From the NCBI RefSeq assembly GCF_050920415.1, contig NZ_CP169309.1: a DNA stretch of 64,000 nucleotides; one strand, 5' to 3'. Made by a program: the position numbers and the translations under genes. The DNA is from Escherichia coli (lineage in GTDB: Bacteria > Pseudomonadota > Gammaproteobacteria > Enterobacterales > Enterobacteriaceae). This document shows, piece by piece, positions 2,558 through 27,643 of this stretch (positions are counted from its first letter, which is position 1; every line of letters begins with the position of its first letter). Under the pieces are notes generated by a model. That model was given only the letters and a program-made list of their open reading frames with translations, was not told where the DNA came from and ran no database searches.

Positions 2558-2576
2558 ATAACACTCCGTGGCTGGT

Positions 2577-6387: not shown

Positions 6388-6723
6388 ATGGATAAAGAAC
6401 GCATCATTCAGGAATTTGTGCCCGGCAAACAGGTCACACTGGCGCATCTCATTGCGCATCCCGGCGAAGAACTGGCGAAGAAAATCGGCGTTCCGGATGC
6501 GGGCGCAATCGGCATTATGACGCTAACTCCCGGCGAAACGGCGATGATCGCCGGTGATTTAGCACTGAAAGCTGCCGATGTGCATATCGGTTTCCTCGAC
6601 CGTTTTAGCGGCGCACTAGTGATTTATGGCTCGGTGGGCGCAGTAGAAGAAGCGTTATCACAAACCGTCAGTGGTTTAGGTCGTTTATTAAATTATACGC
6701 TTTGTGAAATGACCAAAAGTTAA
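6388..6723 (+). CDS. eutS: Ethanolamine utilisation microcompartment shell protein EutS
   Basis: ORF 6316..6723 trimmed to ATG 6388 ([15 protein letters not shown]...), 111 aa BMC-domain protein; first gene of the eut operon. Confidence 0.9.
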
Positions 6724-6735
6724 TACGAGGCATTC

Positions 6736-7891: not shown

Positions 7892-8691
7892 AAGATTTCA
7901 TCACCGAAGCATGGCTAAGAGCGAACCATACGCTCAGCGAAGGCGCAGAGATCCATCTCCCTGCGGACAGTCGCCTGACGCCCTCTGCCCGGGAGTTACT
8001 GGAAAGCCGCCATCTGCGCATCAAGTTTATTGACGAGCAGGGCCGCCTGTTTGTTGACGATGAACAGCAGCAGCTACAGCCCGTTCACGTGCTGACCAGT
8101 AGTGATGAACATCCGCAGGCGTGCTGCGAACTGTGTCACCAGCCAGTGGCGAAAAAGCCGGACACGCTGACTCACCTGTCGGCGGAAAAAATGGTCGCCA
8201 AAAGCGATCCGCGCCTGGGTTTTCGCGCTGTTCTCGACAGCACCATTGCGCTGGTAGTGTGGCTGCAAATTGAACTGACAGAACCGTGGCAGCCGTGGCT
8301 GGCGGACATCCGTTCGCGTCTTGGCAACATTATGCGTGCCGATGTGTTGGGCGAACCGCTGGGCTGCCAGGCGATTGTCGGGTTTTCTGACGAAGATCTG
8401 CATCGACTTTCTCACCAGCCACTGCGTTATCTCGACCACGATCATCTGGTGCCGGAAGCCAGCCACGGGCGCGATGCGGCGTTGCTGAATCTGCTACGCA
8501 CCAAAGTGCGGGAAACCGAAACCGTCGCGGCGCAGGTGTTTATTACCCGTAGTTTTGAAGTATTACGCCCGGACATCTTGCAGGCGCTGAACCGCCTTTC
8601 CAGCACGGTTTACGTGATGATGATTTTGAGCGTAACGAAGCAGCCGCTAACGGTGAAGCAGATCCAACAACGACTGGGGGAAACGCAATGA
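7888..8691 (+). CDS. eutT: Ethanolamine utilisation cobalamin adenosyltransferase EutT
   Basis: 267 aa; 4-nt overlap with eutQ; operon position. Confidence 0.9.
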
Positions 8692-9704
8692 TTATTGAAC
8701 GTTGTCGTGAACTGGCGTTGCGAGCGCCCGCCAGAGTGGTTTTTCCTGATGCGTTAGACCAACGCGTGCTGAAAGCCGCGCAATATCTGTATCAACAAAG
8801 TCTGGCGACGCCCGTTCTTATCGCCAATCCGTTTGAACTTCGCCAGTTTGCGCTCAGCCACGGCGTGGCGATGGACGGGCTACTGGTGATTGATCCTCGT
8901 AGCAACCTCGCAATGCGGGAAGAATTTGCTGACCGCTGGCAGGCCCGTGCGGGAGATAAAACGCCGTCGGATGCGCTGGAAAAACTTACCGATCCACTAA
9001 TGTTCGCCGCTGCGATGGTTAGCGCTGGTAAAGCGGATGTCTGTATTGCAGGCAACCTCTCTTCAACGGCAAATGTACTACGTGCCGGATTACGCGTTAT
9101 CGGCTTGCAGCCTGGCTGTAAAACGCTCTCCTCCATTTTCCTGATGCTGCCACAGTACAGCGGTCCAGCATTGGGCTTTGCCGATTGCAGCGTAGTGCCA
9201 CAGCCGACGGCGGCGCAGTTGGCGGATATCGCGCTTGCCAGCGCCGAAACCTGGCGAGCCATCACCGGAGAAGAGCCGCGCGTGGCGATGTTGTCGTTTT
9301 CCAGTAACGGCAGCGCCCGTCACCCCTGCGTTGCCAACGTGCAGCAAGCGACAGAAATCGTCCGTGAGCGCGCACCAAAGCTGGTCGTCGATGGCGAGTT
9401 GCAGTTTGACGCCGCCTTTGTGCCGGAAGTGGCGGCGCAAAAAGCGCCAGCCAGCCCGCTACAAGGCAAAGCCAATGTGATGGTTTTTCCGTCGCTGGAG
9501 GCGGGAAATATTGGCTACAAAATCGCACAACGACTTGGCGGATATCGTGCCGTCGGGCCATTGATACAAGGACTTGCCGCGCCGATGCACGATCTCTCTC
9601 GTGGTTGTAGCGTGCAGGAAATTATCGAGCTGGCGCTGGTGGCAGCCGTGCCGCGTCAGACAAAAGTGAACCGCGAAAGCAGTTTACAAACACTGGTTGA
9701 ATGA
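8688..9704 (+). CDS. eutD: Phosphotransacetylase EutD
   Basis: 338 aa PTA-family protein; 4-nt overlap with eutT. Confidence 0.9.
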
Positions 9705-9742
9705 ACGGTCCCGTTCTGGACCCCTATAAAGAGGAAAACACA

Positions 9743-10036
9743 ATGGAAGCATTAGGAATGATCGAAACCCGGGGCCTGGTTGCACTGATTGAGGCTTCTG
9801 ATGCGATGGTGAAAGCTGCGCGCGTCAAACTGGTTGGTGTTAAGCAGATTGGCGGCGGCCTGTGTACTGCCATGGTTCGCGGTGATGTTGCAGCCTGTAA
9901 AGCCGCGACCGATGCCGGTGCCGCAGCGGCACAGCGTATCGGTGAACTGGTATCCGTACATGTTATTCCGCGTCCGCACGGCGATCTGGAAGAGGTCTTC
10001 CCGATCGGCCTGAAAGGCGATAGCAGCAACCTGTAA
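9743..10036 (+). CDS. eutM: Microcompartment major shell protein EutM (BMC domain)
   Basis: ORF 9701..10036 trimmed to ATG 9743, which sits behind the RBS aaagaggaaa; [28 protein letters not shown]..., 97 aa. Confidence 0.9.
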
Positions 10037-10142
10037 TCACCCTGTGTGACGTCGATTCGGGCGTCACGCTCTCTCCTTTTTCAGTTTACCTTCCGCGGAG
10101 GGTAGGGGGAGCTTTTACCTGAAATACGCCACGGAGGCGGGT

Positions 10143-10430
10143 ATGAAACTGGCAGTCGTCACTGGACAAATTGTTTGTACCGTACGCCATCACGGACTGG
10201 CGCATGACAAATTGCTGATGGTGGAAATGATTGATCCACAAGGTAATCCTGACGGGCAATGCGCCGTCGCCATCGACAATATTGGCGCGGGAACCGGGGA
10301 GTGGGTGTTGCTGGTGAGTGGCAGTTCCGCCCGCCAGGCGCATAAAAGCGAAACGTCACCGGTCGATCTGTGCGTGATTGGCATCGTCGATGAGGTGGTC
10401 TCTGGCGGTCAGGTAATTTTCCACAAATAA
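10143..10430 (+). CDS. eutN: Microcompartment vertex protein EutN
   Basis: 95 aa, MKLAVVTGQIVCTVRHHGL...; EutN/CcmL-family pattern. Confidence 0.9.
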   Translation: MKLAVVTGQIVCTVRHHGLAHDKLLMVEMIDPQGNPDGQCAVAIDNIGAGTGEWVLLVSGSSARQAHKSETSPVDLCVIGIVDEVVSGGQVIFHK

Positions 10431-10441
10431 GGCAGAACATC

Positions 10442-11845
10442 ATGAATCAACAGGATATTGAACAGGTGGTGAAAGCGGTACTGCTGAAAATGCAAAGCAG
10501 TGACACGTCGCCCGCCGCCGTTCATGAGATGGGCGTTTTTGCTTCCCTGGATGACGCTGTTGCGGCAGCCAAAATTGCCCAGCAAGGGTTAAAAAGCGTG
10601 GCAATGCGCCAGTTAGCCATTGCTGCCATTCGTGAAGCAGGCGAAAAACACGCCAGAGATTTAGCGGAACTTGCCGTCAGTGAAACGGGTATGAGCCGCG
10701 TAGAAGATAAATTTGCCAAAAACGTCGCTCAGGCACGCGGTACGCCAGGCGTTGAGTGCCTCTCTCCACAGGTGCTGACCGGTGACAACGGCCTGACTTT
10801 AATTGAAAACGCGCCCTGGGGCGTGGTGGCTTCGGTGACGCCTTCCACTAACCCGGCGGCAACCGTAATTAATAACGCCATCAGCCTGATTGCCGCGGGC
10901 AACAGCGTCATTTTTGCCCCGCATCCGGCGGCGAAAAAAGTCTCTCAACGGGCTATTACGTTGCTCAACCAGGCGATTGTTGCCGCAGGCGGGCCGGAAA
11001 ACTTACTGGTTACTGTGGCAAATCCAGATATCGAAACCGCGCAACGTTTGTTCAAGTTCCCGGGTATCGGCCTGCTGGTGGTGACCGGCGGCGAAGCGGT
11101 AGTGGAAGCGGCGCGCAAACACACCAATAAACGTCTGATTGCCGCAGGTGCTGGCAACCCGCCGGTGGTGGTGGATGAAACCGCCGACCTCGCCCGTGCC
11201 GCTCAGTCTATCGTCAAAGGCGCTTCTTTCGATAACAACATCATTTGTGCCGATGAAAAGGTACTGATTGTTGTTGATAGCGTAGCCGATGAACTGATGC
11301 GTCTGATGGAAGGCCAGCACGCGGTGAAACTGACCGCAGAACAGGCGCAGCGACTGCAACCGGTGTTGCTGAAAAATATCGACGAGCGCGGAAAAGGCAC
11401 CGTCAGCCGTGACTGGGTGGGTCGCGATGCGGCGAAAATCGCGGCGGCAATCGGCCTGAACGTGCCGCAAGAAACGCGCTTGCTGTTTGTAGAAACCCCC
11501 GCAGAACATCCGTTTGCCGTGACCGAACTGATGATGCCAGTGCTGCCGGTCGTGCGCGTCGCCAACGTGGCGGATGCCATTGCGCTGGCGGTGAAACTGG
11601 AAGGCGGTTGCCACCACACGGCGGCAATGCACTCGCGCAATATCGAGAACATGAACCAAATGGCGAACGCCATTGATACCAGTATTTTCGTTAAGAACGG
11701 ACCGTGCATTGCCGGGCTGGGGCTGGGCGGGGAAGGCTGGACCACGATGACCATCACTACGCCAACCGGTGAAGGGGTAACCAGCGCGCGTACGTTTGTC
11801 CGTCTGCGTCGCTGTGTATTAGTCGATGCGTTTCGCATTGTTTAA
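10442..11845 (+). CDS. eutE: Acetaldehyde dehydrogenase (acetylating) EutE
   Basis: 467 aa aldehyde dehydrogenase-family protein; operon position. Confidence 0.92.
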   Translation: MNQQDIEQVVKAVLLKMQSSDTSPAAVHEMGVFASLDDAVAAAKIAQQGLKSVAMRQLAIAAIREAGEKHARDLAELAVSETGMSRVEDKFAKNVAQARGTPGVECLSPQVLTGDNGLTLIENAPWGVVASVTPSTNPAATVINNAISLIAAGNSVIFAPHPAAKKVSQRAITLLNQAIVAAGGPENLLVTVANPDIETAQRLFKFPGIGLLVVTGGEAVVEAARKHTNKRLIAAGAGNPPVVVDETADLARAAQSIVKGASFDNNIICADEKVLIVVDSVADELMRLMEGQHAVKLTAEQAQRLQPVLLKNIDERGKGTVSRDWVGRDAAKIAAAIGLNVPQETRLLFVETPAEHPFAVTELMMPVLPVVRVANVADAIALAVKLEGGCHHTAAMHSRNIENMNQMANAIDTSIFVKNGPCIAGLGLGGEGWTTMTITTPTGEGVTSARTFVRLRRCVLVDAFRIV

Positions 11846-11855
11846 GGAGTAACCG

Positions 11856-12692
11856 ATGGCGCACGACGAACAATGGCTTACCCCGCGGCTGCAAACGGCG
11901 GCAACGCTGTGTAACCAGACGCCCGCCGCGTCGGAATCTCCGCTGTGGCTGGGGGTAGATCTGGGCACCTGCGATGTGGTGTCGATGGTTGTCGACTGCG
12001 ACGGTCAGCCGGTGGCGGTATGTCTCGACTGGGCCGATGTGGTCCGCGACGGCATCGTCTGGGATTTCTTCGGTGCTGTCACCATTGTTCGTCGCCATCT
12101 CGATACCCTTGAGCAGCAATTTGGTCGCCGTTTTAGCCATGCGGCGACCTCATTTCCTCCTGGTACGGACCCGCGTATTTCCATCAACGTGCTGGAGTCT
12201 GCCGGGCTGGAAGTGAGCCATGTGCTTGATGAGCCAACCGCAGTCGCGGATCTACTGCAACTGGACAACGCCGGTGTAGTGGATATTGGCGGCGGCACTA
12301 CCGGAATTGCCATCGTGAAAAAGGGCAAGGTGACTTATTCAGCGGATGAAGCGACCGGCGGACATCACATTTCTCTGACTCTCGCCGGAAATCGCCGTAT
12401 TTCGCTGGAAGAGGCAGAGCAGTACAAGCGCGGTCACGGTGACGAGATTTGGCCTGCGGTGAAGCCGGTGTACGAAAAAATGGCGGACATTGTTGCCCGG
12501 CATATTGAAGGGGAGGGCATTACTGATTTATGGCTGGCGGGCGGCTCTTGTATGCAACCGGGCGTGGCGGAACTGTTTCGCAAACAATTCCCGGCGTTAC
12601 AGGTGCATTTACCGCAGCACAGTTTGTTTATGACCCCGCTGGCGATCGCCAGTAGCGGGCGAGAGAAAGCGGAGGGGCTATATGCAAAATGA
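11856..12692 (+). CDS. eutJ: Ethanolamine utilisation chaperone-like protein EutJ (actin/Hsp70-fold ATPase)
   Basis: 278 aa; DLGTCDVV and DIGGGTTGIA phosphate-binding motifs. Confidence 0.9.
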   Translation: MAHDEQWLTPRLQTAATLCNQTPAASESPLWLGVDLGTCDVVSMVVDCDGQPVAVCLDWADVVRDGIVWDFFGAVTIVRRHLDTLEQQFGRRFSHAATSFPPGTDPRISINVLESAGLEVSHVLDEPTAVADLLQLDNAGVVDIGGGTTGIAIVKKGKVTYSADEATGGHHISLTLAGNRRISLEEAEQYKRGHGDEIWPAVKPVYEKMADIVARHIEGEGITDLWLAGGSCMQPGVAELFRKQFPALQVHLPQHSLFMTPLAIASSGREKAEGLYAK

Positions 12693-13869
12693 ATTGCAGA
12701 CCGCGCTCTTTCAGGCGTTCGATACCCTGAATCTGCAACGGGTAAAAACATTTAGCGTTCCACCGGTGACGCTTTGCGGTCCGGGCGCGGTGAGCAGTTG
12801 TGGGCAGCAAGCGCAAACGCGTGGGCTGAAACATCTGTTCGTGATGGCAGACAGCTTTTTGCATCAGGCGGGGATGACCGCCGGGCTGACGCGCAGTCTG
12901 GCAGTAAAAGGCATCGCCATGACGCTCTGGCCGTGTCCGGTGGGCGAACCGTGCATCACTGACGTGTGTGCAGCCGTGGCGCAGTTGCGTGAATCAGGCT
13001 GTGATGGGGTGATCGCGTTTGGCGGTGGCTCGGTGCTGGATGCGGCAAAAGCCGTGGCGTTGCTGGTAACGAATCCCGATAGCACGCTGGCAGAAATGTC
13101 AGAAACCAGCGTTCTGCAACCGCGCCTGCCGTTGATTGCCATTCCAACTACCGCCGGAACCGGCTCTGAAACCACCAATGTAACGGTGATTATCGACGCG
13201 GTGAGCGGGCGCAAGCAGGTGTTAGCACATGCCTCGTTGATGCCGGATGTGGCGATTCTCGACGCCGCGCTGACCGAAGGTGTGCCGTCGCATGTCACGG
13301 CAATGACCGGTATCGACGCGTTAACTCATGCTATTGAAGCGTACAGCGCGCTGAACGCTACACCGTTTACAGACAGCCTGGCGATTGGCGCAATTGCGAT
13401 GATTGGTAAATCACTGCCGAAAGCAGTGGGCTACGGTCATGACCTTGCCGCGCGCGAGAGTATGTTGCTCGCATCATGCATGGCGGGAATGGCATTTTCC
13501 AGTGCCGGACTTGGGTTATGTCACGCGATGGCGCATCAGCCGGGGGCGGCGCTGCATATTCCGCACGGACTGGCGAACGCCATGCTGCTGCCCACGGTGA
13601 TGGAGTTTAACCGGATGGTCTGTCGCGAACGGTTTAGTCAGATTGGTCGGGCGCTGCGAACTAAAAAATCCGACGATCGTGATGCTATTAACGCGGTAAG
13701 TGAGCTGATTGCGGAAGTCGGGATTGGTAAACGGCTGGGCGATGTTGGCGCGACATCTGCGCATTACGGTGCATGGGCGCAGGCTGCGCAGGACGATATT
13801 TGTCTGCGTAGCAACCCGCGTACTGCCAGCCTGGAGCAGATCGTCGGCCTGTACGCGGCGGCGCAATAA
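12682..13869 (+). CDS. eutG: Iron-containing alcohol dehydrogenase EutG
   Basis: 395 aa; GGGSVLDAAKA motif typical of Fe-ADH. Confidence 0.9.
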   Translation: MQNELQTALFQAFDTLNLQRVKTFSVPPVTLCGPGAVSSCGQQAQTRGLKHLFVMADSFLHQAGMTAGLTRSLAVKGIAMTLWPCPVGEPCITDVCAAVAQLRESGCDGVIAFGGGSVLDAAKAVALLVTNPDSTLAEMSETSVLQPRLPLIAIPTTAGTGSETTNVTVIIDAVSGRKQVLAHASLMPDVAILDAALTEGVPSHVTAMTGIDALTHAIEAYSALNATPFTDSLAIGAIAMIGKSLPKAVGYGHDLAARESMLLASCMAGMAFSSAGLGLCHAMAHQPGAALHIPHGLANAMLLPTVMEFNRMVCRERFSQIGRALRTKKSDDRDAINAVSELIAEVGIGKRLGDVGATSAHYGAWAQAAQDDICLRSNPRTASLEQIVGLYAAAQ

Positions 13870-13870
13870 A

Positions 13871-14057
<187 letters not shown>

Positions 14058-14085
14058 AAATAACAACTAACAGGGAGTAAAGGCG

Positions 14086-15312
14086 ATGGGAATTAACGAA
14101 ATCATCATGTACATCATGATGTTCTTTATGCTGATAGCTGCCGTGGACAGGATCCTGTCGCAGTTCGGCGGTTCTGCTCGTTTCCTCGGTAAGTTCGGTA
14201 AAAGTATCGAAGGATCCGGCGGCCAGTTCGAAGAAGGCTTTATGGCAATGGGCGCACTGGGCCTGGCGATGGTCGGTATGACCGCACTGGCACCAGTTCT
14301 GGCCCACGTACTTGGGCCGGTGATTATCCCGGTTTACGAAATGCTCGGTGCTAACCCATCGATGTTCGCCGGAACACTGCTGGCGTGCGACATGGGCGGC
14401 TTCTTCCTCGCGAAAGAGCTGGCGGGCGGCGATGTGGCAGCGTGGCTATACTCTGGGTTAATTCTCGGATCGATGATGGGGCCAACGATTGTGTTTTCCA
14501 TTCCGGTGGCGCTCGGCATTATCGAACCTTCTGACCGTCGTTATCTGGCGCTCGGCGTGCTGGCGGGCATTGTGACCATTCCAATTGGCTGTATCGCTGG
14601 AGGTCTGGTAGCTATGTATTCCGGTGTGCAGATCAACGGGCAGCCGGTGGAATTCACCTTTGCGCTTATCCTGATGAATATGATCCCGGTACTTATCGTC
14701 GCGGTGCTGGTGGCGCTGGGGCTGAAATTCATCCCGGAAAAAATGATCAACGGCTTCCAGATCTTCGCCAAATTCCTCGTTGCATTGATCACCCTCGGTC
14801 TTGCCGCTGCGGTAGTGAAATTCCTCCTTGGCTGGGAACTGATCCCCGGTCTGGATCCGATCTTCATGGCTCCAGGCGACAAACCCGGTGAAGTGATGCG
14901 CGCCATTGAAGTTATCGGTTCTATCTCCTGCGTTCTGTTAGGGGCGTATCCGATGGTGCTGCTGCTGACACGCTGGTTTGAAAAACCGCTGATGAGCGTC
15001 GGTAAAGTGCTGAATATGAACAATATCGCGGCAGCCGGCATGGTGGCAACGCTTGCCAACAACATCCCGATGTTTGGCATGATGAAGCAGATGGATACCC
15101 GCGGCAAAGTCATCAACTGTGCCTTCGCCGTTTCCGCTGCTTTCGCCCTGGGTGACCACTTAGGCTTCGCCGCTGCCAACATGAACGCCATGATCTTCCC
15201 GATGATTGTCGGCAAGTTGATCGGCGGCGTAACGGCGATTGGCGTGGCGATGATGCTGGTGCCAAAAGAAGACGCGACCGCGGCTAAAACCGAAGCGGAG
15301 GCACAATCGTGA
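14086..15312 (+). CDS. eutH: Ethanolamine permease EutH
   Basis: 408 aa polytopic membrane protein; operon position. Confidence 0.9.
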   Translation: MGINEIIMYIMMFFMLIAAVDRILSQFGGSARFLGKFGKSIEGSGGQFEEGFMAMGALGLAMVGMTALAPVLAHVLGPVIIPVYEMLGANPSMFAGTLLACDMGGFFLAKELAGGDVAAWLYSGLILGSMMGPTIVFSIPVALGIIEPSDRRYLALGVLAGIVTIPIGCIAGGLVAMYSGVQINGQPVEFTFALILMNMIPVLIVAVLVALGLKFIPEKMINGFQIFAKFLVALITLGLAAAVVKFLLGWELIPGLDPIFMAPGDKPGEVMRAIEVIGSISCVLLGAYPMVLLLTRWFEKPLMSVGKVLNMNNIAAAGMVATLANNIPMFGMMKQMDTRGKVINCAFAVSAAFALGDHLGFAAANMNAMIFPMIVGKLIGGVTAIGVAMMLVPKEDATAAKTEAEAQS

Positions 15313-16712
15313 ACACTCGCCAGCTACTGAGCGTCGGTATCGATATCGGCACTACCACCACCCAGGTGATCTTCTCCCACCTGGAGCTGGTTAACCGTGC
15401 GGCGGTGTCGCAGGTGCCGCGCTACGAATTCATCAAACGCGAAATTAGCTGGCAAAGCCCGGTGTTCTTTACCCCTGTCGATAAACAGGGCGGTTTAAAA
15501 GAAGAGGAACTGAAATCCTTAATCCTCGAGCAATATCAGGCTGCGGGCATTGCGCCGGAAAGTGTGGATTCCGGTGCCATCATCATCACCGGCGAAAGCG
15601 CGAAAACCCGCAATGCTCGCCCGGCGGTGATGACGCTCTCTCAGTCGCTGGGCGATTTTGTCGTTGCCAGCGCTGGGCCGCATCTCGAATCCGTGATCGC
15701 CGGTCACGGTGCCGGGGCGCAAACCCTTTCTGAACAACGGTTATGTCGGGTACTGAATATCGACATCGGCGGTGGCACCGCGAACTACGCTTTGTTCGAT
15801 GCCGGAAAAATCAGCGGCACTGCCTGCCTTAACGTCGGCGGCCGCCTGCTGGAAACCGACAGCCAGGGACGCGTGGTTTACGCTCATATACCGGGGCAGA
15901 TGATTGTGGATGAGTGCTTCGGTGCAGGCACTGACGCCTGTTCACTGACCGGCGCGCAGCTGGTGCAGGTTACCCGGCGGATGGCGGAACTGATTGTCGA
16001 AGTGATTGACGGAACGCTCTCGCCGCTCGCGCAGGCATTGATGCAAACCGGTTTGCTGCCCGCAGGTGTTACGCCCGAAATCATTACGCTTTCTGGCGGC
16101 GTGGGCGAATGTTATCGCCACCAGCCCGCTGACCCGTTCTGTTTTGCCGATATTGGCCCGCTTCTGGCAACGGCGCTGCATGAGCATCCTCGTCTGCGTG
16201 AGATGAACGTGCAGTTTCCAGCGCAAACCGTGCGCGCCACGGTGATTGGCGCAGGCGCACATACCCTTTCGCTCTCTGGCAGCACAATCTGGCTGGAGGG
16301 GGTACAACTGCCGCTGCGCAATTTGCCGGTGGCGATCCCAATTGATGAAACGGATCTGGTGAGTGCCTGGCAACAAGCGCTAATTCAACTGGATCTTTGC
16401 CCCAAAACTGACGCGTACGTGCTGGCGCTTCCCGCCTCGCTGCCTGTGCGTTACGCCGCGGTACTGACGGTCATCAACGCGCTGGTCGATTTCGTCGCGC
16501 GTTTTCCGAATCCGCATCCCCTGCTGGTGGTGGCCGGGCAGGACTTTGGTAAAGCTCTGGGCATGTTGTTGCGTCCACAGCTACAACAACTCCCGTTGGC
16601 AGTCATTGACGAAGTGATTGTCCGCGCGGGGGACTATATCGACATTGGTACGCCTCTTTTTGGCGGATCGGTTGTGCCGGTGACGGTGAAATCACTCGCA
16701 TTTCCTTCCTGA
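15309..16712 (+). CDS. eutA: Ethanolamine ammonia-lyase reactivase EutA
   Basis: 467 aa; 4-nt overlap with eutH. Confidence 0.9.
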   Translation: MNTRQLLSVGIDIGTTTTQVIFSHLELVNRAAVSQVPRYEFIKREISWQSPVFFTPVDKQGGLKEEELKSLILEQYQAAGIAPESVDSGAIIITGESAKTRNARPAVMTLSQSLGDFVVASAGPHLESVIAGHGAGAQTLSEQRLCRVLNIDIGGGTANYALFDAGKISGTACLNVGGRLLETDSQGRVVYAHIPGQMIVDECFGAGTDACSLTGAQLVQVTRRMAELIVEVIDGTLSPLAQALMQTGLLPAGVTPEIITLSGGVGECYRHQPADPFCFADIGPLLATALHEHPRLREMNVQFPAQTVRATVIGAGAHTLSLSGSTIWLEGVQLPLRNLPVAIPIDETDLVSAWQQALIQLDLCPKTDAYVLALPASLPVRYAAVLTVINALVDFVARFPNPHPLLVVAGQDFGKALGMLLRPQLQQLPLAVIDEVIVRAGDYIDIGTPLFGGSVVPVTVKSLAFPS

Positions 16713-16723
16713 GGGAACGACTT

Positions 16724-18085
16724 ATGAAACTAAAGACCACATTGTTCGGCAATGTATATCAGTTTAAGGATGTAAAAGAGGTGCTGGCTAAAGCCAACGA
16801 ACTGCGTTCGGGGGATGTGCTGGCGGGCGTTGCAGCGGCAAGCTCACAGGAGCGCGTGGCGGCAAAGCAGGTGTTGTCGGAAATGACCGTAGCGGACATC
16901 CGCAATAATCCGGTGATTGCCTATGAAGATGACTGCGTTACGCGGTTGATTCAGGACGACGTTAACGAAACGGCATACAACCAGATTAAAAACTGGAGCA
17001 TCAGCGAACTGCGTGAGTATGTGCTGAGTGATGAAACCAGCGTTGACGACATTGCTTTTACCCGCAAAGGGCTGACCTCGGAAGTGGTCGCGGCGGTAGC
17101 GAAGATTTGCTCTAACGCGGACCTGATCTACGGCGCGAAGAAAATGCCGGTAATCAAAAAGGCCAATACAACTATTGGTATTCCGGGCACCTTCAGCGCC
17201 CGTTTGCAGCCAAACGATACCCGCGACGACGTGCAAAGTATCGCCGCGCAAATCTACGAAGGGCTTTCTTTCGGGGTGGGCGATGCGGTGATCGGCGTTA
17301 ACCCGGTGACTGACGACGTGGAAAACTTAAGCCGCGTGCTGGATACCATCTATGGCGTGATCGACAAATTCAACATTCCGACCCAGGGCTGCGTGCTGGC
17401 GCACGTTACTACCCAGATTGAAGCGATCCGTCGCGGCGCGCCGGGCGGGCTGATTTTCCAGAGCATCTGCGGCAGCGAAAAAGGGCTGAAAGAATTTGGC
17501 GTGGAGCTGGCGATGCTCGATGAAGCACGCGCAGTGGGCGCAGAGTTTAACCGTATCGCCGGGGAAAACTGCCTCTACTTCGAAACCGGGCAGGGTTCTG
17601 CGCTATCGGCGGGCGCTAACTTCGGTGCAGATCAGGTAACGATGGAAGCGCGTAACTACGGGCTGGCACGTCATTACGATCCGTTTATCGTCAACACCGT
17701 AGTGGGCTTTATTGGGCCAGAGTATCTCTACAACGACCGGCAGATTATCCGTGCGGGCTTAGAAGATCACTTTATGGGCAAACTGAGCGGCATTTCTATG
17801 GGCTGTGACTGCTGCTACACCAACCACGCTGACGCTGACCAGAACCTCAACGAAAACCTGATGATCCTGCTCGCCACCGCAGGCTGTAACTACATCATGG
17901 GGATGCCGCTGGGTGATGACATCATGCTCAACTACCAGACTACGGCCTTCCACGACACCGCCACTGTGCGTCAGTTACTCAACCTGCGCCCGTCACCGGA
18001 GTTTGAACGCTGGCTGGAAAGCATGGGCATTATGGCAAACGGTCGCCTGACCAAACGGGCGGGCGATCCGTCACTGTTCTTCTGA
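16724..18085 (+). CDS. eutB: Ethanolamine ammonia-lyase heavy chain EutB
   Basis: 453 aa; starts 12 bp after the eutA stop. Confidence 0.93.
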   Translation: MKLKTTLFGNVYQFKDVKEVLAKANELRSGDVLAGVAAASSQERVAAKQVLSEMTVADIRNNPVIAYEDDCVTRLIQDDVNETAYNQIKNWSISELREYVLSDETSVDDIAFTRKGLTSEVVAAVAKICSNADLIYGAKKMPVIKKANTTIGIPGTFSARLQPNDTRDDVQSIAAQIYEGLSFGVGDAVIGVNPVTDDVENLSRVLDTIYGVIDKFNIPTQGCVLAHVTTQIEAIRRGAPGGLIFQSICGSEKGLKEFGVELAMLDEARAVGAEFNRIAGENCLYFETGQGSALSAGANFGADQVTMEARNYGLARHYDPFIVNTVVGFIGPEYLYNDRQIIRAGLEDHFMGKLSGISMGCDCCYTNHADADQNLNENLMILLATAGCNYIMGMPLGDDIMLNYQTTAFHDTATVRQLLNLRPSPEFERWLESMGIMANGRLTKRAGDPSLFF

Positions 18086-18105
18086 TGACGCGGAGATAAC
18101 ACATC

Positions 18106-18993
18106 ATGGATCAAAAACAGATTGAAGAAATTGTACGCAGCGTGATGGCGTCAATGGGACAAGCGGCCCCCGCGCCGTCAGAAGCAAAATGCGCCACTAC
18201 CACCTGTGCAGCACCGGTGACCTCGGAAAGCTGCGCGCTGGATTTAGGTTCCGCAGAAGCAAAAGCGTGGATTGGCGTTGAAAACCCGCATCGCGCAGAC
18301 GTATTAACAGAACTGCGCCGCAGCACCGTGGCTCGCGTCTGTACCGGTCGTGCCGGTCCGCGTCCGCGTACCCAGGCGTTGCTGCGTTTCCTGGCCGATC
18401 ACTCTCGTTCGAAAGACACCGTACTGAAAGAAGTGCCGGAGGAGTGGGTGAAAGCGCAGGGCTTGCTGGAAGTCCGCTCTGAAATTAGCGACAAAAATCT
18501 CTATCTGACTCGCCCGGATATGGGCCGCCGCTTGTGTGCAGAGGCTGTTGAAGCGCTGAAAGCGCAGTGTGTTGCCAATCCGGACGTACAGGTGGTTATT
18601 TCCGATGGTCTATCTACTGATGCGATCACCGTGAACTATGAAGAGATTCTGCCACCGCTGATGGCGGGCCTGAAACAGGCCGGGTTGAAAGTCGGCACAC
18701 CGTTCTTTGTGCGTTACGGTCGCGTGAAGATTGAAGATCAGATTGGCGAACTTCTTGGCGCGAAAGTGGTGATCCTGCTGGTGGGTGAACGTCCGGGGTT
18801 GGGGCAGTCAGAAAGTCTCTCCTGCTACGCCGTTTACTTGCCGCGTATGGCAACCACCGTTGAGGCCGACCGTACCTGTATCTCTAACATTCACCAGGGC
18901 GGCACGCCGCCGGTTGAAGCCGCAGCCGTCATTGTGGATTTGGCGAAACGTATGCTGGAGCAGAAAGCATCCGGCATCAACATGACCCGATAA
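18106..18993 (+). CDS. eutC: Ethanolamine ammonia-lyase light chain EutC
   Basis: 295 aa; operon position. Confidence 0.92.
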
Positions 18994-19002
18994 GGAGGCA
19001 TC

Positions 19003-19662
19003 ATGCCAGCTTTAGATTTGATTCGACCGTCGGTAACCGCCATGCGGGTGATTGCCTCTGTTAACGCCGAATTTGCGCGTGAACTGAAATTGCCGCCGCA
19101 TATTCGTAGCCTCGGGCTGATTTCTGCTGATTCCGATGACGTCACCTACATTGCGGCTGACGAAGCGACCAAGCAGGCGATGGTTGAAGTCGTGTATGGT
19201 CGCTCGCTGTATGCGGGAGCTGCACACGGGCCGTCACCGACTGCCGGTGAAGTGCTGATTATGCTCGGGGGGCCAAACCCGGCGGAAGTGCGTGCCGGTC
19301 TGGATGCGATGGTTGCGCATATTGAAAATGGCGCTGCTTTCCAGTGGGCTAATGATGCAGAAAACACAGCCTTCCTGGCGCATGTCGTTTCGCGTACCGG
19401 CTCTTATCTCTCATCAACCGCCGGGATCACGCTTGGCGATCCGCTGGCGTATCTGGTGGCACCGCCGCTGGAAGCGACCTACGGCATTGATGCAGCGTTG
19501 AAATCTGCCGACGTGCAGCTGGTGACCTATGTCCCGCCACCGTCTGAAACCAACTACTCGGCAGCATTTTTAACCGGTAGCCAGGCCGCGTGTAAAGCAG
19601 CCTGTAACGCCTTTACCGATGCAGTGCTGGAAATCGCGCGTAATCCAATCCAGCGTGCGTAA
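19003..19662 (+). CDS. eutL: Microcompartment shell protein EutL (tandem BMC domains)
   Basis: 219 aa; operon position. Confidence 0.9.
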
Positions 19663-19674
19663 CGGAGGTTGCCG

Positions 19675-20175
19675 ATGATCAATGCACTGGGATTGCTGGA
19701 AGTGGACGGCATGGTCGCCGCGATAGATGCAGCTGATGCCATGCTCAAAGCAGCTAACGTTCGTCTGCTCAGTCACGAAGTGCTTGACCCTGGTCGCCTA
19801 ACGCTGGTGGTGGAAGGCGATCTGGCGGCGTGTCGTGCGGCGCTGGACGCAGGTTGTGCTGCCGCGATGCGTACCGGGCGTGTCATCAGCCGTAAGGAGA
19901 TCGGTCGGCCAGACGATGACACCCAGTGGCTGGTTACTGGCTTTAACCGCCAACCGAAGCAACCCGTAAAGGAACCCGACGCGCCAGTTATCGTCGCGGA
20001 ATCTGCTGACGAGTTGTTGGCGCTGTTAACATCAGTACGTCAGGGAATGACGGCAGGAGAAGTGGCTGCCCACTTTGGCTGGCCGCTGGAAAAAGCCAGA
20101 AATGCGCTCGAACAGCTCTTTTCTGCCGGGACGTTACGTAAACGCAGTAGTCGTTATCGTCTCAAGCCCCATTAA
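19675..20175 (+). CDS. eutK: Microcompartment shell protein EutK
   Basis: ORF 19669 (TTG) trimmed to ATG 19675 behind a ggagg RBS; MINALGLLEVDGMVAAIDAADAM..., 166 aa. Confidence 0.88.
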   Translation: MINALGLLEVDGMVAAIDAADAMLKAANVRLLSHEVLDPGRLTLVVEGDLAACRAALDAGCAAAMRTGRVISRKEIGRPDDDTQWLVTGFNRQPKQPVKEPDAPVIVAESADELLALLTSVRQGMTAGEVAAHFGWPLEKARNALEQLFSAGTLRKRSSRYRLKPH

Positions 20176-20220
20176 CCTGTCGGAGGTGCCGGGTGTCCTA
20201 CAACACCCGGCATTAACATC

Positions 20221-21273
20221 ATGAAAAAGACCCGTACAGCCAATTTGCACCATCTTTATCATGAACCCTTACCCGAAAACCTGAAGCTCACGCCGAAGGT
20301 CGAAGTGGATAATGTTCATCAACGACAGACAACGGATGTCTATGAACATGCTTTGACGATTACCGCCTGGCAGCAGATTTACGATCAGCTGCATCCGGGC
20401 AAGTTTCATGGTGAATTTACGGAAATTCTACTCGATGATATTCAGGTTTTTCGTGAATACACCGGTCTGGCGCTGCGTCAGTCGTGCCTGGTCTGGCCGA
20501 ACTCGTTCTGGTTTGGCATTCCGGCGACGCGCGGTGAGCAGGGATTTATCGGTTCGCAATGTCTGGGAAGCGCAGAAATTGCGACACGCCCTGGAGGAAC
20601 CGAGTTTGAATTAAGTACGCCGGACGATTACACGATCCTTGGCGTGGTGCTTTCTGAAGATGTCATCACCCGTCAGGCTAACTTTTTGCATAACCCGGAA
20701 AGGGTGCTGCATATGTTACGTAACCAGTCGGCGCTGGAAGTGAAAGAGCAGCATAAAGCCGCGCTGTGGGGCTTTGTCCAACAGGCTCTGGCGACATTTT
20801 GCGAGAACCCGGAAAATCTCCATCAGCCTGCAGTGCGAAAAGTGCTGGGGGATAATTTGCTAATGGCGATGGGGGCGATGCTGGAAGAAGCGCAGCCAAT
20901 GGTGACGGCGGAAAGTATCAGCCACCAGAGTTACCGTCGCTTGTTGACCCGCGCGCGTGAATATGTGCTGGAGAATATGTCCGAACCGGTAACCGTGCTG
21001 GATTTGTGCAATCAACTGCATGTCAGCCGCCGCACGCTACAAAACGCGTTTCACGCTCTTTTAGGCATTGGCCCAAACGCGTGGCTGAAACGCATTCGCC
21101 TGAACGCCGTGCGCCGCGAACTGATAAGCCCGTGGTCGCAAAGTACAACGGTCAAAGATGCCGCCATGCAGTGGGGATTCTGGCATCTGGGGCAATTCGC
21201 CACGGATTACCAGCAACTGTTTGCCGAGAAGCCGTCTCTGACGCTACATCAGCGGATGCAGGAACTGGAGTGA
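20221..21273 (+). CDS. eutR: AraC-family transcriptional activator of the eut operon, EutR
   Basis: 350 aa; C-terminal AraC-type HTH region; last gene of the operon. Confidence 0.9.
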
Positions 21274-21349
21274 GGGTGAGGGCCGGATGAGGATGGTGTT
21301 TGATCCGGTCCATAGTGAAGTTACAAATTACGTTGAATTGCTATGTATT

Positions 21350-21667
21350 TTATTGCCCAACGGGATAGGCGATAAACAAACCGACAATTGTCAGAATACA
21401 CGCCAGCAGGAATACCAACATACAATTTACGCGCTTTCGCGAAATTTTAAATAAATAGCAAAATAGTGTTGTTACCACGATCACTACCGGGATAGTCATA
21501 AAATTAATAACGATGAGTGCTATCAATCCAAAACTTGCTCCTCCACCGTGGGGAATAAAAATGTGTTCTTCAAAATAAACTTCTATAGCAAATGCCAGCA
21601 CACATCCCAGAAAACTCATATCCAGATGAGGGTGCCATTTACTTTCTTTATTTGATGTGTCTGACAT
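21350..21667 (-). CDS. Small hypothetical membrane protein (about 3 predicted TM helices); accessory relative to K-12
   Basis: 105 aa with hydrophobic stretches (LGCVLAFAIEVYF, FGLIALIVINFMTIPVVIVVTTLF, MLVFLLACILTIVGLFI); visibly AT-rich coding sequence; no counterpart recalled between eutR and hemF in K-12. Confidence 0.5.
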   Translation of the reverse strand: MSDTSNKESKWHPHLDMSFLGCVLAFAIEVYFEEHIFIPHGGGASFGLIALIVINFMTIPVVIVVTTLFCYLFKISRKRVNCMLVFLLACILTIVGLFIAYPVGQ

Positions 21668-21707
21668 TCTTAAATGCTCCCGTGAGCAAACTGGCGCAAA
21701 ATAATTT

Positions 21708-22970
21708 CTAAGATTGCTGATAAGACGTCGCTGTTGTCCGGCACTCCGGGCAGATAAACGCGTAAATTATCCCTTCGCCATATTGTTCAATATCGGCATA
21801 ATCCAGTTGCGCAAGAAACATCATTGTGTGGGAACATTGCGGACAGAGAGGATATTCCGCGTCCTGAATCCAGGTTGGATGCCCGCCAAGTTGCGAGAAA
21901 GAGACAGGTAAAAATGGGTCTGCGGCAAATAACGGTGACCTAAGGTTTCCCTGTCTCATGCTGTTTACAGGGAGTCGACGCCATTCCGATACATCATCCG
22001 GCAGCCAGGCAGGCGGGATATTTTTTGCAGACAAATGAGCGTTACCCTTTGAGTCCATGTAGCCGAAAATGGTGCTGTAGGCGGTGCAACATTCGCAAGT
22101 CACGACGCGAAAACTGCCGTTATCGCTAAGACCCGTTGCCTTCAGGTCAACGTCGAAAAGATTTGTTAGGGGCAATGCGCACTTTGGACAGGTATCGCTG
22201 CGTTCATCAACAACACGCAAAGCTTCGCAAGACCCGGTGCTTTTCATCTCCAGATGAAAACATTGAGGAAAATAGAGATTACGCCTTTGATCTTCAGCGG
22301 TTAACTCCCAACCGGCCTCATGCGCATATTCTTCTGGCGCGATGTAAAGTGAACTGCGCCACAGCGGCGGGTTATTGCGCCAGTAGGCAAAACGTTCAAC
22401 AACAACGTCATCCCCAATCCATGCCAGACATTGCAGAATACAATTTCTGTTTTCTGCATCATCCTCAACCCGTTCTAACAGCGTATCGCGAACATCCGCT
22501 GGGGCGCGGTGGAAAGGCAGAGGAGAATAAGCGTCTAAATCATCATAAGAGATCCACTCTCGTAAATATGCATCCAGATTTGCCTGGGTAAACGCCGCCA
22601 GACAAAGACAAATCTCCTGAGCGTGTTCATATTCACCAGACGCAAAGCGTTCTGTGGCGTAATCAGCCATTTGCTGCGCTTGCTCGGCGGTCAACTGTTG
22701 ATACAGGGCATCGGTGGGAACGGGGCAGGGAGTCCAGTCGATTAACGCATCGAATTTCCGCGGTTGGTGAATTAATTTAAGCATGGCAACCGGATCGCTT
22801 AACCCAGCAAACGCATTCACGATCTTTTTGTTTTTCTTGATATATTCGTCGTGCTCACGCTGCTGTTGGGCCTGCTCGCAGGGCATGCAGTATCCGTTAG
22901 TACGCGCTGCGGTTTCCGGAAGAATGGTTGATGTACAAGCGGGGCTTTTACAGGGAATACGGTGAGTCAT
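21708..22970 (-). CDS. Hypothetical Cys-rich protein with DUF1963/YwqG-like C-terminal signature; accessory relative to K-12
   Basis: 420 aa; several CxxC pairs (CMPC, CPKC, CPQC, CPEC); C-terminal GGHPTWIQDAEYPLCPQCSHTMMFLAQLDY...GIIYAFICPEC resembles the DUF1963 family by recollection. Confidence 0.6.
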   Translation of the reverse strand: MTHRIPCKSPACTSTILPETAARTNGYCMPCEQAQQQREHDEYIKKNKKIVNAFAGLSDPVAMLKLIHQPRKFDALIDWTPCPVPTDALYQQLTAEQAQQMADYATERFASGEYEHAQEICLCLAAFTQANLDAYLREWISYDDLDAYSPLPFHRAPADVRDTLLERVEDDAENRNCILQCLAWIGDDVVVERFAYWRNNPPLWRSSLYIAPEEYAHEAGWELTAEDQRRNLYFPQCFHLEMKSTGSCEALRVVDERSDTCPKCALPLTNLFDVDLKATGLSDNGSFRVVTCECCTAYSTIFGYMDSKGNAHLSAKNIPPAWLPDDVSEWRRLPVNSMRQGNLRSPLFAADPFLPVSFSQLGGHPTWIQDAEYPLCPQCSHTMMFLAQLDYADIEQYGEGIIYAFICPECRTTATSYQQS

Positions 22971-23107
22971 AGAGGCGCTCCTTGCCTGAGGATATTAAGT
23001 CGAAAGAGATTATTATTAGATATTAGGGTGTCACTATGGCACACAAATTAAACAGAATTAATTTCAAGCCACAAACATAGGGTTATTTTTCTTTTATTTT
23101 CATGATA

Positions 23108-24010
<903 letters not shown>

Positions 24011-24880
24011 TTACCGCTTTCTCGAGTGTGCTTTCTGGTTGTCAAACCAGTGGAAATAACTGATCACGCCTTCGGCAATGGCTGTGGCGATTTTCTGGCG
24101 AAATGCCGCCGTGCCTAACAGCCGCTCTTCTTCCGGGTTGGTGATAAAAGAAGTTTCCACCAGCACCGAAGGAACAGATGGCGATTTCAACACTACAAAC
24201 GCGGCTTGTTCGGTATTGCGACTGTGCAGCTTATGCACCGGCTTAATCTTCTTCAGAATATGCGAGCCAAGCGTCAGGCTGTTTTTAATGGTATCGGTTT
24301 GCACCAGATCAAACAGCACTTGCTGCAATAGGTGATCCTTGTCAGTCGCTTTTTTACCGGCAACTTCATCAGCGCGGTTTTCGCGTTCAGACAGGTATTT
24401 CGCCATTGCGCTACTTGCGCCGCGGTTAGAGAGAGCAAATACCGAAGCACCGGCAGCTTTCGGGTTAGTAAAGCCGTCGGCGTGAATTGACATAAACAGG
24501 TCAGCGCCATGTTTATGGGCGATTTCAACGCGATCGTACAGCGGGATAAACGTATCGCCAGAACGCGTTAAACGCGCATCAATGCCATGATTACGCAATA
24601 TGGAACGGACGTTTTTGGCAATCGCCAGCACCACATGTTTTTCTTTCGATCCATTGCGACCAATCGCTCCGGTATCAATTCCGCCGTGGCCTGGATCGAG
24701 AACAACGACACGTTTGCCGCCGCTTTTTTTGGCTTTCGGCTTACTGTGTCCGTTACTGGTTTTTAAAGGTTCTTCTTTGGCGATGGCTTGCGACATTCCT
24801 GACAACGTCAGGGCAGCCAATCCGGCTTTCAGCACCTGGCGGCGCGAAGTGAGTGTTTTTAGTGGTTTAAAAGTGCTCAT
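24011..24880 (-). CDS. amiA: N-acetylmuramoyl-L-alanine amidase AmiA
   Basis: 289 aa; Tat-type signal peptide (SRRQVLKAG); amidase_3-family body. Confidence 0.92.
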   Translation of the reverse strand: MSTFKPLKTLTSRRQVLKAGLAALTLSGMSQAIAKEEPLKTSNGHSKPKAKKSGGKRVVVLDPGHGGIDTGAIGRNGSKEKHVVLAIAKNVRSILRNHGIDARLTRSGDTFIPLYDRVEIAHKHGADLFMSIHADGFTNPKAAGASVFALSNRGASSAMAKYLSERENRADEVAGKKATDKDHLLQQVLFDLVQTDTIKNSLTLGSHILKKIKPVHKLHSRNTEQAAFVVLKSPSVPSVLVETSFITNPEEERLLGTAAFRQKIATAIAEGVISYFHWFDNQKAHSRKR

Positions 24881-25093
24881 ACGGCCTGAGTTGTAATAAT
24901 AAAGTTCCAGATGTTATATCGTATCGCGTAATCCGTTACGACCGTTTGCTGTTGAGAATTGTTTTACTTTTCATTTCAATAGTTGACAACTCCCCATTAT
25001 GCCACTTTTTTAACCGATTTTCGTCAGATATTGGCTAATTCGACCGTTCACGCCATAATCAGCCTTTTAACCCGCAAAAAGGTAACGAATACC

Positions 25094-25519
25094 ATGGAGA
25101 TACGCGTATTTCGCCAGGAAGATTTCGAAGAGGTCATCACCCTTTGGGAGCGTTGCGACTTGCTGCGTCCGTGGAACGATCCGGAAATGGACATCGAGCG
25201 CAAAATGAACCATGACGTCAGTCTGTTTCTGGTCGCTGAGGTAAACGGTGAAGTGGTCGGAACGGTGATGGGCGGTTATGACGGGCATCGCGGGTCTGCT
25301 TATTATCTTGGCGTGCATCCAGAGTTTCGTGGGCGTGGGATTGCTAATGCGTTGCTTAATCGGCTGGAGAAAAAGCTGATTGCTCGCGGCTGCCCGAAAA
25401 TTCAGATCAATGTGCCGGAAGATAACGACATGGTGCTCGGAATGTATGAACGCCTTGGATATGAACACGCCGACGTGCTGAGTCTGGGCAAGCGTTTGAT
25501 TGAAGATGAAGAGTACTGA
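25094..25519 (+). CDS. ypeA: GNAT-family N-acetyltransferase YpeA
   Basis: ORF 24983..25519 trimmed to ATG 25094 ([14 protein letters not shown]...), 141 aa. Confidence 0.85.
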
Positions 25520-25955
25520 GTTTCATCCTGCCCATTATGATGCGCACGGACGCCTGCGTTTACCTTTTCTCTTCTGGCTTGTGCTGTTGCTTCAGGCGCG
25601 AACCTGGGTGCTGTTTGTCATTGCCGGTGCGTCGCGTGAGCAGGGTACTGCGCTGTTGAATCTGTTTTATCCCGATCACGATAATTTCTGGCTGGGGTTA
25701 ATTCCTGGCATTCCTGCGGTGCTGGCGTTTTTGTTGAGCGGTCGGCGGGCTACGTTTCCTCGCATCTGGTATGTACTCTATTTTCTGTTGCTGTTGGCGC
25801 AGCTCGTTTTGCTTTGCTGGCAACCGTGGTTGTGGCTGAACGGTGAATCCGTTAGCGGTATCGGTCTGGCGCTGGTAGTGGCGGATATTGTGGCGTTAAT
25901 CTGGCTGCTGACCAATCGACGTTTACGCGCTTGTTTTAATGAAGAAAAAGAATAA
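25506..25955 (+). CDS. yfeZ: Inner membrane protein YfeZ
   Basis: About 149 aa hydrophobic protein; start taken at the second ATG ([11 protein letters not shown]...); overlaps the ypeA end. Confidence 0.8.
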
Positions 25956-26015
25956 CGGCACTTTTTGGTGAATTTGCACTCCAAGCAACGTTATTGAATA
26001 ACCAAAGGAAGTGAC

Positions 26016-26591
26016 ATGAAATCGCTGCGTTTAATGTTATGCGCTATGCCGTTGATGCTGACCGGCTGTTCCACGATGTCGTCAGTTAACTGGTCTGCCG
26101 CTAACCCGTGGAACTGGTTTGGGTCGTCCACCAAAGTGAGCGAGCAGGGCGTTGGTGAATTAACGGCGTCCACACCACTGCAAGAACAAGCCATTGCCGA
26201 TGCGCTTGATGGCGATTATCGCCTGCGCAGCGGAATGAAAACCGCGAACGGCAACGTGGTGCGCTTTTTTGAAGTGATGAAAGGCGACAACGTGGCGATG
26301 GTGATTAACGGCGATCAGGGCACGATCAGCCGCGTTGATGTGCTGGATAGCGATATTCCAGCTGACTCCGGTGTTAAAATCGGTACACCGTTTAGCGACC
26401 TTTACAGCAAAGCATTTGGCAATTGCCAAAAAGCTGATGGTGATGATAATCGTGCCGTCGAATGTAAAGCCGAAGGCAGTCAACATATTAGCTACCAGTT
26501 CAGCGGGGAATGGAGTGGTCCTGAAGGGTTAATGCCTTCGGACGATACCCTGAAAAACTGGAAAGTCAGTAAAATTATCTGGCGGCGTTAA
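26016..26591 (+). CDS. yfeY: Lipoprotein YfeY
   Basis: 191 aa; lipobox LTGC in the signal peptide (MKSLRLMLCAMPLMLTGCS). Confidence 0.88.
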   Translation: MKSLRLMLCAMPLMLTGCSTMSSVNWSAANPWNWFGSSTKVSEQGVGELTASTPLQEQAIADALDGDYRLRSGMKTANGNVVRFFEVMKGDNVAMVINGDQGTISRVDVLDSDIPADSGVKIGTPFSDLYSKAFGNCQKADGDDNRAVECKAEGSQHISYQFSGEWSGPEGLMPSDDTLKNWKVSKIIWRR

Positions 26592-26602
26592 TTTGCGTCT
26601 GA

Positions 26603-27586
<984 letters not shown>

Positions 27587-27606
27587 GCGCTTCTGATTCG
27601 ATGATT

Positions 27607-27643
27607 AAAGGCCAGCCAGTATCACAACTGACTGGCCTTTTTA
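27607..27643. terminator. Bidirectional rho-independent terminator between convergent yfeX and yfeW
   Basis: aaaggccag...ctggccttt 9-bp stem with an internal ccagt/actgg helix, flanked by A-run and T-run. Confidence 0.6.

Follow-up and report, generated by a model that had tools for sequence, protein, structure and literature searches.

Between hemF and eutR, on a contig of Escherichia coli (NZ_CP169309.1, assembly GCF_050920415.1) from which a stretch of 64,000 nucleotides was analyzed (the window), lie two minus-strand genes that K-12 lacks (Table 1). The first encodes a protein of 420 amino acids (aa), named 'DUF1963 domain-containing protein' in RefSeq, which we call the TYPP protein after the domain superfamily to which its C-terminal half belongs; the second, ypfK, encodes a membrane protein of 105 aa and begins 40 bp downstream. 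An initial annotation, made from the sequence alone, had placed both open reading frames (ORFs) here and had taken hemF and eutR to be neighbors in K-12. Both points hold: the hemF and eutR stop codons of K-12 MG1655 are 5 bp apart, and 1834 bp of the window, comprising the two genes and their spacers, stand in the place of those 5 bp. The same annotation took the pair for an accessory insert, possibly a conflict or stress module. Comparison with other genomes points to an old enterobacterial locus that nearly all E. coli appear to have lost, and the larger protein belongs to a family already described computationally, though functionally uncharacterized. An Rfam scan gave zero matches, and there are no RNA genes at the locus.

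Table 1. Features of the hemF-eutR gap and its flanks, in window coordinates.
Feature	Position	Strand	Basis or remark
eutR	20221-21273	+	stop convergent with ypfK stop
spacer, eutR stop to ypfK stop	21274..21349	.	76 bp
ypfK, AT-rich gene for a small membrane protein of 105 aa	21350..21667	-	ORF list; Pfam PF26378
spacer between the two genes	21668..21707	-	40 bp; GGGAG Shine-Dalgarno-like sequence serving ypfK
TYPP gene, 420 aa, TYPP/DUF1963 'prokaryotic family 2' architecture	21708..22970	-	ORF; full-length homologues at 35-95% identity; AlphaFold2 model
two-repeat TYPP domain, about aa 220-420	21711..22313	-	
all-helical HEAT-like repeat domain, about aa 55-219, with conserved LAWIGD and WRxxPPxW motifs	22314..22808	-	
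putative N-terminal Cys4 zinc ribbon, about aa 1-35 (C7, C12, C28, C31)	22866..22970	-	Cys conservation; AlphaFold2 model
spacer, hemF stop to TYPP gene start	22971..23107	-	137 bp, GC 0.33; AAGGAG Shine-Dalgarno-like sequence
hemF	23108-24007	-	upstream of TYPP gene, co-directional
amiA-hemF	23108..24880	-	conserved upstream neighbors; define the orthologous locus in other genera

The TYPP protein is acidic (pI 4.8), soluble and cytoplasmic, and contains 20 cysteines. The four or more CxxC pairs first reported prove to be five, beginning at residues 28, 261, 292, 376 and 407, together with one Cx4C (C7/C12). Aligned across 32 homologues drawn from several phyla, these cysteines fall into three Cys4 groups, C7/C12/C28/C31, C261/C264/C292/C295 and C376/C379/C407/C410; eleven of the twelve positions are invariant, including the whole N-terminal group, the remaining one is conserved in at least 90% of the sequences, and all twelve are intact in the window copy. 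This pattern suggests that each of the three groups binds zinc. Also invariant among the 32 homologues are a GGHP motif (G362-G363-H-P365), the glutamines Q369, Q388 and Q418, and further polar residues around the second TYPP repeat (S359, D370, Y373 and E399), while motifs of the helical domain such as LAWIGD are conserved. The TYPP motifs are likewise intact in the window copy.

An AlphaFold2 (AF2) model of the protein, with a predicted local distance difference test score (pLDDT) of 93.3 and a predicted template modeling score (pTM) of 0.87, has a small N-terminal ribbon of short strands followed by a helix, then a helical domain at about residues 60-219 and a beta-rich C-terminal half. The latter contains an internal repeat; when its two copies are aligned, the CxxC pairs fall in register (HHalign P 2.5e-4), as is characteristic of the two-repeat all-beta TYPP domain. 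The second Cys4 group lies in repeat 1 and the third in repeat 2. GGxP occurs in repeat 2 only, and none was found at the aligned position of repeat 1. Pfam DUF1963 (PF09234) matches just residues 359-406 (independent E-value 5.8e-5, 24.0 bits, model positions 1-51 of 216), and the precomputed DUF1963 labels of homologues are in part unmarked, in part flagged 'weak' or 'faint'. This partial match agrees with the DUF1963/YwqG-like C terminus of the initial annotation, but the whole C-terminal half is better described as a two-repeat TYPP domain, an architecture published in 2014. Searches of the Protein Data Bank (PDB) by sequence, with the family profile, the N-terminal profile or the TYPP half alone, gave nothing significant, the N-terminal profile drawing weak, generic zinc-ribbon matches only; the Pfam model zf-dskA_traR matched 0 of 26 N-terminal ribbon segments, and Foldseek against AFDB50 returned only 'DUF1963' or uncharacterized proteins and no functional match.

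At 35-60% identity, homologues as long as the TYPP protein occur in dozens of species of Paenibacillus and also in Clostridium, Lysinibacillus, Sporosarcina, Chitinimonas, Shewanella electrica, Verrucomicrobia and Planctomycetes. An exhaustive search collected 273 clusters (50% identity) at E <=1e-30 and 1419 at E <=1e-3. A contig search found homologues when the alignment was the query, and nothing with the single protein; L numbers below denote individual loci. Clustering of gene neighborhoods at 86 loci showed synteny within Paenibacillus only, with no partner gene conserved across phyla. At 16 Paenibacillus loci (including L028, L034 and L041) an AlaX-like gene with a tRNA_SAD editing domain lies on the same strand 13-295 bp upstream of the TYPP gene, the distance being 13-81 bp in 14 of the 16, all in one clade. 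Although translation-related, this neighbor may simply be inherited synteny, since it is confined to one genus.

Tsr4, YwqG/DUF1963, PDCD2L and PDCD2 were united as the TYPP superfamily by Burroughs and Aravind in 2014, who describe the domain as a pair of all-beta repeats, strand-swapped, that bear GGxP, a conserved glutamine and, in some members, CxxC pairs (PMC4275035). The same paper defines a 'prokaryotic family 2', with an uncharacterized N-terminal helical domain and, in several members, an N-terminal C4 zinc finger of the DksA/TraR type, and lists a full-length enterobacterial sequence from Salmonella among the search seeds (PMC4275035). The 420-aa protein resembles this family in its putative C4 finger, its helical domain and a TYPP domain of two repeats that carries GGxP, glutamine and CxxC pairs; it differs in that its N-terminal finger has no Pfam DksA/TraR match and in that GGxP is clear in repeat 2 only. 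On this architecture, it fits prokaryotic family 2. The Tsr4, PDCD2 and PDCD2L proteins share the domain superfamily, but PDCD2 has a MYND finger set between its repeats; in the 420-aa protein the putative zinc ribbons lie within the repeats, and additional domains precede the repeats at the N terminus. Neither sequence nor fold searches matched it directly to PDCD2 or Tsr4. Bacillus subtilis YwqG (PDB 1PV5), the founding member of Pfam DUF1963 and a single-domain protein of 261 aa, differs in lacking both the zinc ribbon and the HEAT-like domain, and the 420-aa protein has no sequence-level PDB match.

The second gene is visibly AT-rich, as had been observed, with a GC content of 0.384 and a third-position value (GC3) of 0.358 against 0.515 for the whole window. 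Hydropathy and AF2 place hydrophobic helices at residues 18-35, 43-73 and 77-104 of its product, in agreement with the estimate of about three transmembrane helices. Conserved features are a KWHPHL motif in the N-terminal tail and an IFIPHGGG loop, and a basic loop, KISRKRVN, is predicted to face the cytoplasm by the positive-inside rule. YpfK is accordingly predicted, from its sequence, to be a three-helix inner-membrane protein with its N terminus inside. The precomputed label PF26378 (YpfK) is carried by 18 of the 19 homologue clusters, whose members measure 105-109 aa, and by genes of loci L012, L013, L096-L101, L104 and L105. Homologues were found only in Escherichia, Kluyvera and Salmonella, and always at the hemF locus. 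In the literature, searches on ypfK, STM2452/STM2453, bacterial TYPP proteins and the intergenic region of hemF and eutR gave no information on function, and none of the papers found mentions YpfK in this sense.

To establish how common the pair is, we compared the junction across complete E. coli genomes, as the initial annotation had proposed. The pair is not core: a megablast search found the 1834-bp segment in 28 of 5426 genomes, chromosomal every time, and the K-12-type junction, with hemF and eutR abutting, is intact in 5394 (99.4%). Over the part compared, the window itself is identical to the chromosome of E. coli MFDS1022581. Both genes have full-length ORFs in 25 of the 28 carriers. 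The layout of the window is shared by 15 carriers; nine, among them the enteropathogenic E. coli (EPEC) strain E2348/69, have a SNF2-family helicase and a 223-aa protein between the TYPP gene and hemF; three have the TYPP gene only, with a Tli3-family gene, two TPR genes and a gene for a 221-aa protein where ypfK would be (L010:646-2940); and one has a TacA/GNAT toxin-antitoxin pair added between the TYPP gene and hemF (L002:4793-5585). The region 3' of hemF is a small variable spot with differing cargo in single lineages.

Some of this cargo can be described further. The helicase, of about 1150 aa, contains DUF8276 and DUF3670 domains, has a ZorD/DpdE-like C-terminal half and matches the SCO1167 family below cutoff; its 223-aa partner has no matches, and the module, which does not match any complete known defense system, is present both in E2348/69 (L011:27313-31430) and in one enterobacterial contig from outside E. 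coli (L104:5320-9564). The Tli3-family gene belongs to an immunity family of the type VI secretion system (T6SS), and the gap of Citrobacter enshiensis holds a gene for a 349-aa ankyrin-repeat protein (L103:3784-4833). The surroundings are polymorphic as well: window positions 17400-27640 are unusually variable in E. coli, with an identity to K-12 of only about 95-96%, and the 605-bp hemF/eutR junction of K-12 is less than 99% identical in about three-quarters of complete genomes.

To get an evolutionary perspective on the locus, we examined its position in other enterobacteria. The TYPP gene lies on the same strand, 43-137 bp 3' of amiA-hemF, in E. albertii, E. fergusonii-type contigs, Kluyvera, Yokenella, Citrobacter enshiensis, Superficieibacter and the uncultured enterobacterium UBA3516, the orthologous position being occupied, E. 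coli aside, in seven or more enterobacterial species or genera. In genomes that have no eut operon, the pair lies between hemF and maeB. Salmonella has the reversed order hemF-ypfK-TYPP-eutR, with ypfK about 20 bp 3' of hemF, as at L101:4543-6278 of Salmonella enterica subsp. salamae, against hemF-TYPP-ypfK in Escherichia and Kluyvera. A repeat search for insertion scars around the segment returned only short chance matches, and the annotated window contains no integrase, transposase or other mobility gene. A genomic island or mobile insertion was considered and rejected, there being neither flanking repeats nor mobility genes and the chromosomal position being fixed across genera.

Rates of substitution point the same way. 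Between the window and E2348/69 the synonymous divergence (dS) of the TYPP gene is 0.23, the same as that of the flanking hemF and eutR (0.21-0.23), which indicates that the genes have diverged together with the locus. The TYPP gene has a ratio of nonsynonymous to synonymous divergence (dN/dS) of 0.12-0.31 and ypfK one of 0.17-0.33, compared with 0.02-0.13 for the flanks; these values point to purifying selection on both genes, weaker than on their neighbors. Conservation across genera at such ratios means that both genes are real.

Remnants in various states of decay are found elsewhere in the family. Some Salmonella keep just a fragment matching aa 290-412 of the TYPP protein, contig L104 has a stub of aa 1-55 followed by ypfK, the TYPP gene of E. 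fergusonii is in split copies, ypfK of E. albertii is frameshifted, and truncated forms of the TYPP protein are frequent in databases. Taken together, the orthologous position, the lack of repeats and mobility genes, the divergence in step with the flanks and the remnants elsewhere argue that the K-12 state is a deletion. The pair is accessory in E. coli, as first proposed (28 of 5426), but it is not an insert: comparison of the genomes identifies amiA-hemF-[TYPP gene]-[ypfK] as an old arrangement of the Enterobacteriaceae, apparently removed by a clean deletion in nearly all E. coli and kept in about 0.5% of complete genomes. Taken on their own, the identity of the genes and this evolutionary history are parts of the account that we hold with high confidence.

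Two further observations concern the segment and its border. Window positions 21243-26007 (amiA-hemF-TYPP-ypfK) are 95.7% identical to L098, a scaffold whose YpfK sequence is named E. fergusonii at NCBI, as against just 86.5% for the tal-maeB side (window 1323-6095), a contrast that could stem from interspecies recombination of the segment. At the border with eutR, EutR ends in ...MQELE in the window (21259-21273), in ...MREWG in K-12, E2348/69 and E. albertii, and in ...MRQWA in Salmonella; its last four residues are allele-specific exactly at the border of the segment absent from K-12. The eut operon (eutS to eutR, window 6388-21273) is uninterrupted in the window strain; that of K-12 is split by the CPZ-55 prophage.

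What the TYPP protein does is suggested chiefly by the eukaryotic members of the superfamily. The only TYPP proteins whose function is known, Tsr4 of yeast and PDCD2 of humans, serve uS5, a ribosomal protein, as dedicated co-translational chaperones (PMC7736825; PMC6648895). The disordered N-terminal segment of uS5 is bound via the TYPP domain, mutation of either repeat abolishing binding, and the authors remark that this eukaryotic client segment has no counterpart in bacterial uS5 (PMC7736825). A chaperone-like role in protein interaction had been proposed for TYPP domains in the 2014 study (PMC4275035), and the later work bore it out for the eukaryotic members. By analogy, the TYPP protein would most likely be a soluble, acidic scaffold stabilized by three Cys4, presumably zinc, sites and acting as a dedicated client-binding protein, a chaperone or adaptor. 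Its TYPP cleft would grip a peptide of one specific partner, extended and probably basic, with additional contact surfaces offered by the helical domain and by the N-terminal ribbon. YpfK would be a lineage-restricted membrane companion, possibly its membrane anchor or client, dispensable for most members of the family. That the two make contact is suggested by their adjacency in three genera and in both orders, TYPP then ypfK in Escherichia and Kluyvera and the reverse in Salmonella. As a whole, this account of an ancestral locus encoding a zinc-stabilized client-binding protein and its YpfK companion is offered tentatively, at slightly less than an even chance of being right in all its parts.

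Several observations weigh against it. The analogy with Tsr4 and PDCD2 spans domains of life, and the literature searched yielded no bacterial TYPP member with a known client or function. Gene neighborhoods give no hint of a client either, no neighbor being conserved across phyla. Yokenella, Citrobacter, Superficieibacter and every non-enteric taxon have the TYPP gene without ypfK, ypfK stands alone in some Salmonella and in L104, and 99.4% of E. coli manage without the pair. An AF2 model of the two proteins fused as TYPP-(GGGGS)6-YpfK gave no sign of docking, a weak test with about seven paired sequences and neither predicted aligned errors (PAE) nor coordinates; in it the N-terminal tail of YpfK is a coil (pLDDT 26-43) and pTM falls to 0.71. 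Finally, Burroughs and Aravind left open an enzymatic role as a 'more radical interpretation', which they judge less plausible (PMC4275035).

Four other explanations were weighed, none of which is directly supported in this analysis. The pair may be a spent remnant, intact in these Escherichia by chance, without a present role and heading for loss. Such a fate is in keeping with the absence of the pair from 99.4% of E. coli and with the damaged copies (truncated, split or frameshifted) seen in E. coli, E. fergusonii, E. albertii and Salmonella, and dN/dS within E. coli (0.22-0.31) exceeds both that between genera (0.12-0.17) and that of the flanks. These within-species ratios are nevertheless well below 1, both ORFs are full-length in most carriers, and the window copy keeps its twelve zinc-site cysteines and its TYPP motifs, so we regard the remnant explanation as unlikely.

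It is more doubtful still that the genes form a conflict module, as initially suggested, with the TYPP protein acting as an immunity-like binder of polymorphic toxins or as an anti-phage sensor and YpfK as its membrane effector or partner. A SUKH/SMI1-KNR4 domain, which represents an immunity superfamily, is fused to one member of the family, and DUF2625 to another; the pair is patchy across E. coli, and in a few strains the gap also holds the TacA/GNAT pair, the Tli3-family immunity gene with its TPR genes, the ankyrin-repeat gene or the ZorD/DpdE-like helicase described above. The suggestion nonetheless found no direct support. Scans of both proteins against NCBIfam, PADLOC and PHROGs gave nothing significant, PADLOC offering no family for either even at E up to 1; no toxin gene adjoins the pair in the window, and no toxin-like neighbor is conserved across 80 loci. 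The TYPP protein is a single-copy, full-length orthologue across phyla, at the identities given above and in the many Paenibacillus species, and is in this respect unlike fast-evolving immunity genes, while the enteric locus is syntenic and vertically inherited rather than carried on an island. A type II toxin-antitoxin pair was rejected separately, on the sizes of 420 and 105 aa, the 40-bp gap, the lack of any match to a toxin-antitoxin family and the reversed order in Salmonella.

Alternatively, the TYPP protein may be an accessory of the amiA-hemF operon, co-transcribed with it and assisting AmiA or HemF, perhaps as the holder of an N-terminal or signal peptide or as a source of metal. The TYPP gene follows hemF in the same direction, at the distances given above, in every enterobacterial genus examined except Salmonella, where ypfK comes first, and eukaryotic TYPP domains bind disordered N-terminal segments. 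A promoter and terminator scan found no terminator-like hairpin in the 137-bp spacer between hemF and the TYPP gene, so that read-through from amiA-hemF is possible and the TYPP gene may be co-transcribed with hemF; the scan called no site in the 40-bp spacer before ypfK. Outside the family Enterobacteriaceae, however, the gene never adjoins hemF or amiA, and amiA-hemF works without it in almost all E. coli. Regulation is of no help in deciding: in the 137-bp spacer, mismatch scoring put boxes of Fur, Zur, CRP, FNR, ArcA and OxyR at or below shuffled expectation, and the promoter and regulator-box scans favor neither side. An operon accessory therefore seems improbable to us. An enzyme, in which a TYPP pocket with the conserved glutamine would catalyze peptide or other modification and the Cys4 sites would be structural or redox-active, is very improbable, for despite the interpretation raised in 2014 and the invariant polar residues around repeat 2 (S359, Q369, D370, Y373, Q388, E399 and Q418) no similarity to an enzyme, housekeeping or other, was found in Pfam, NCBIfam, PDB sequence or fold searches, the authors of the 2014 paper themselves favor it less, and the members known from eukaryotes are chaperones.

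Returning to the client-binding account, its boldest form would make the TYPP protein a dedicated chaperone like Tsr4 and PDCD2, the first from a bacterium, one that captures a disordered N-terminal segment of a single specific client and acts at the membrane via YpfK. We consider this form improbable as it stands. The client could then be the KWHPHL tail of YpfK, or a product of amiA-hemF such as the AmiA signal peptide.

For the annotation of E. coli genomes the lesson is that a rare 'accessory' gene pair can be an ancestral locus nearly fixed for deletion, and not evidence of a horizontally acquired conflict system. For the family, the interest is wider. TYPP/DUF1963 proteins are widespread in bacteria, none with an assigned function, and their eukaryotic relatives are essential chaperones of ribosomal proteins. 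The enterobacterial locus is a convenient place to search for the client of a bacterial TYPP protein, because it occurs in tractable organisms (EPEC E2348/69 and Salmonella) and has natural presence/absence variants. If the dedicated-chaperone reading were true, it would provide an experimental entry to a superfamily that is without a known function in bacteria.

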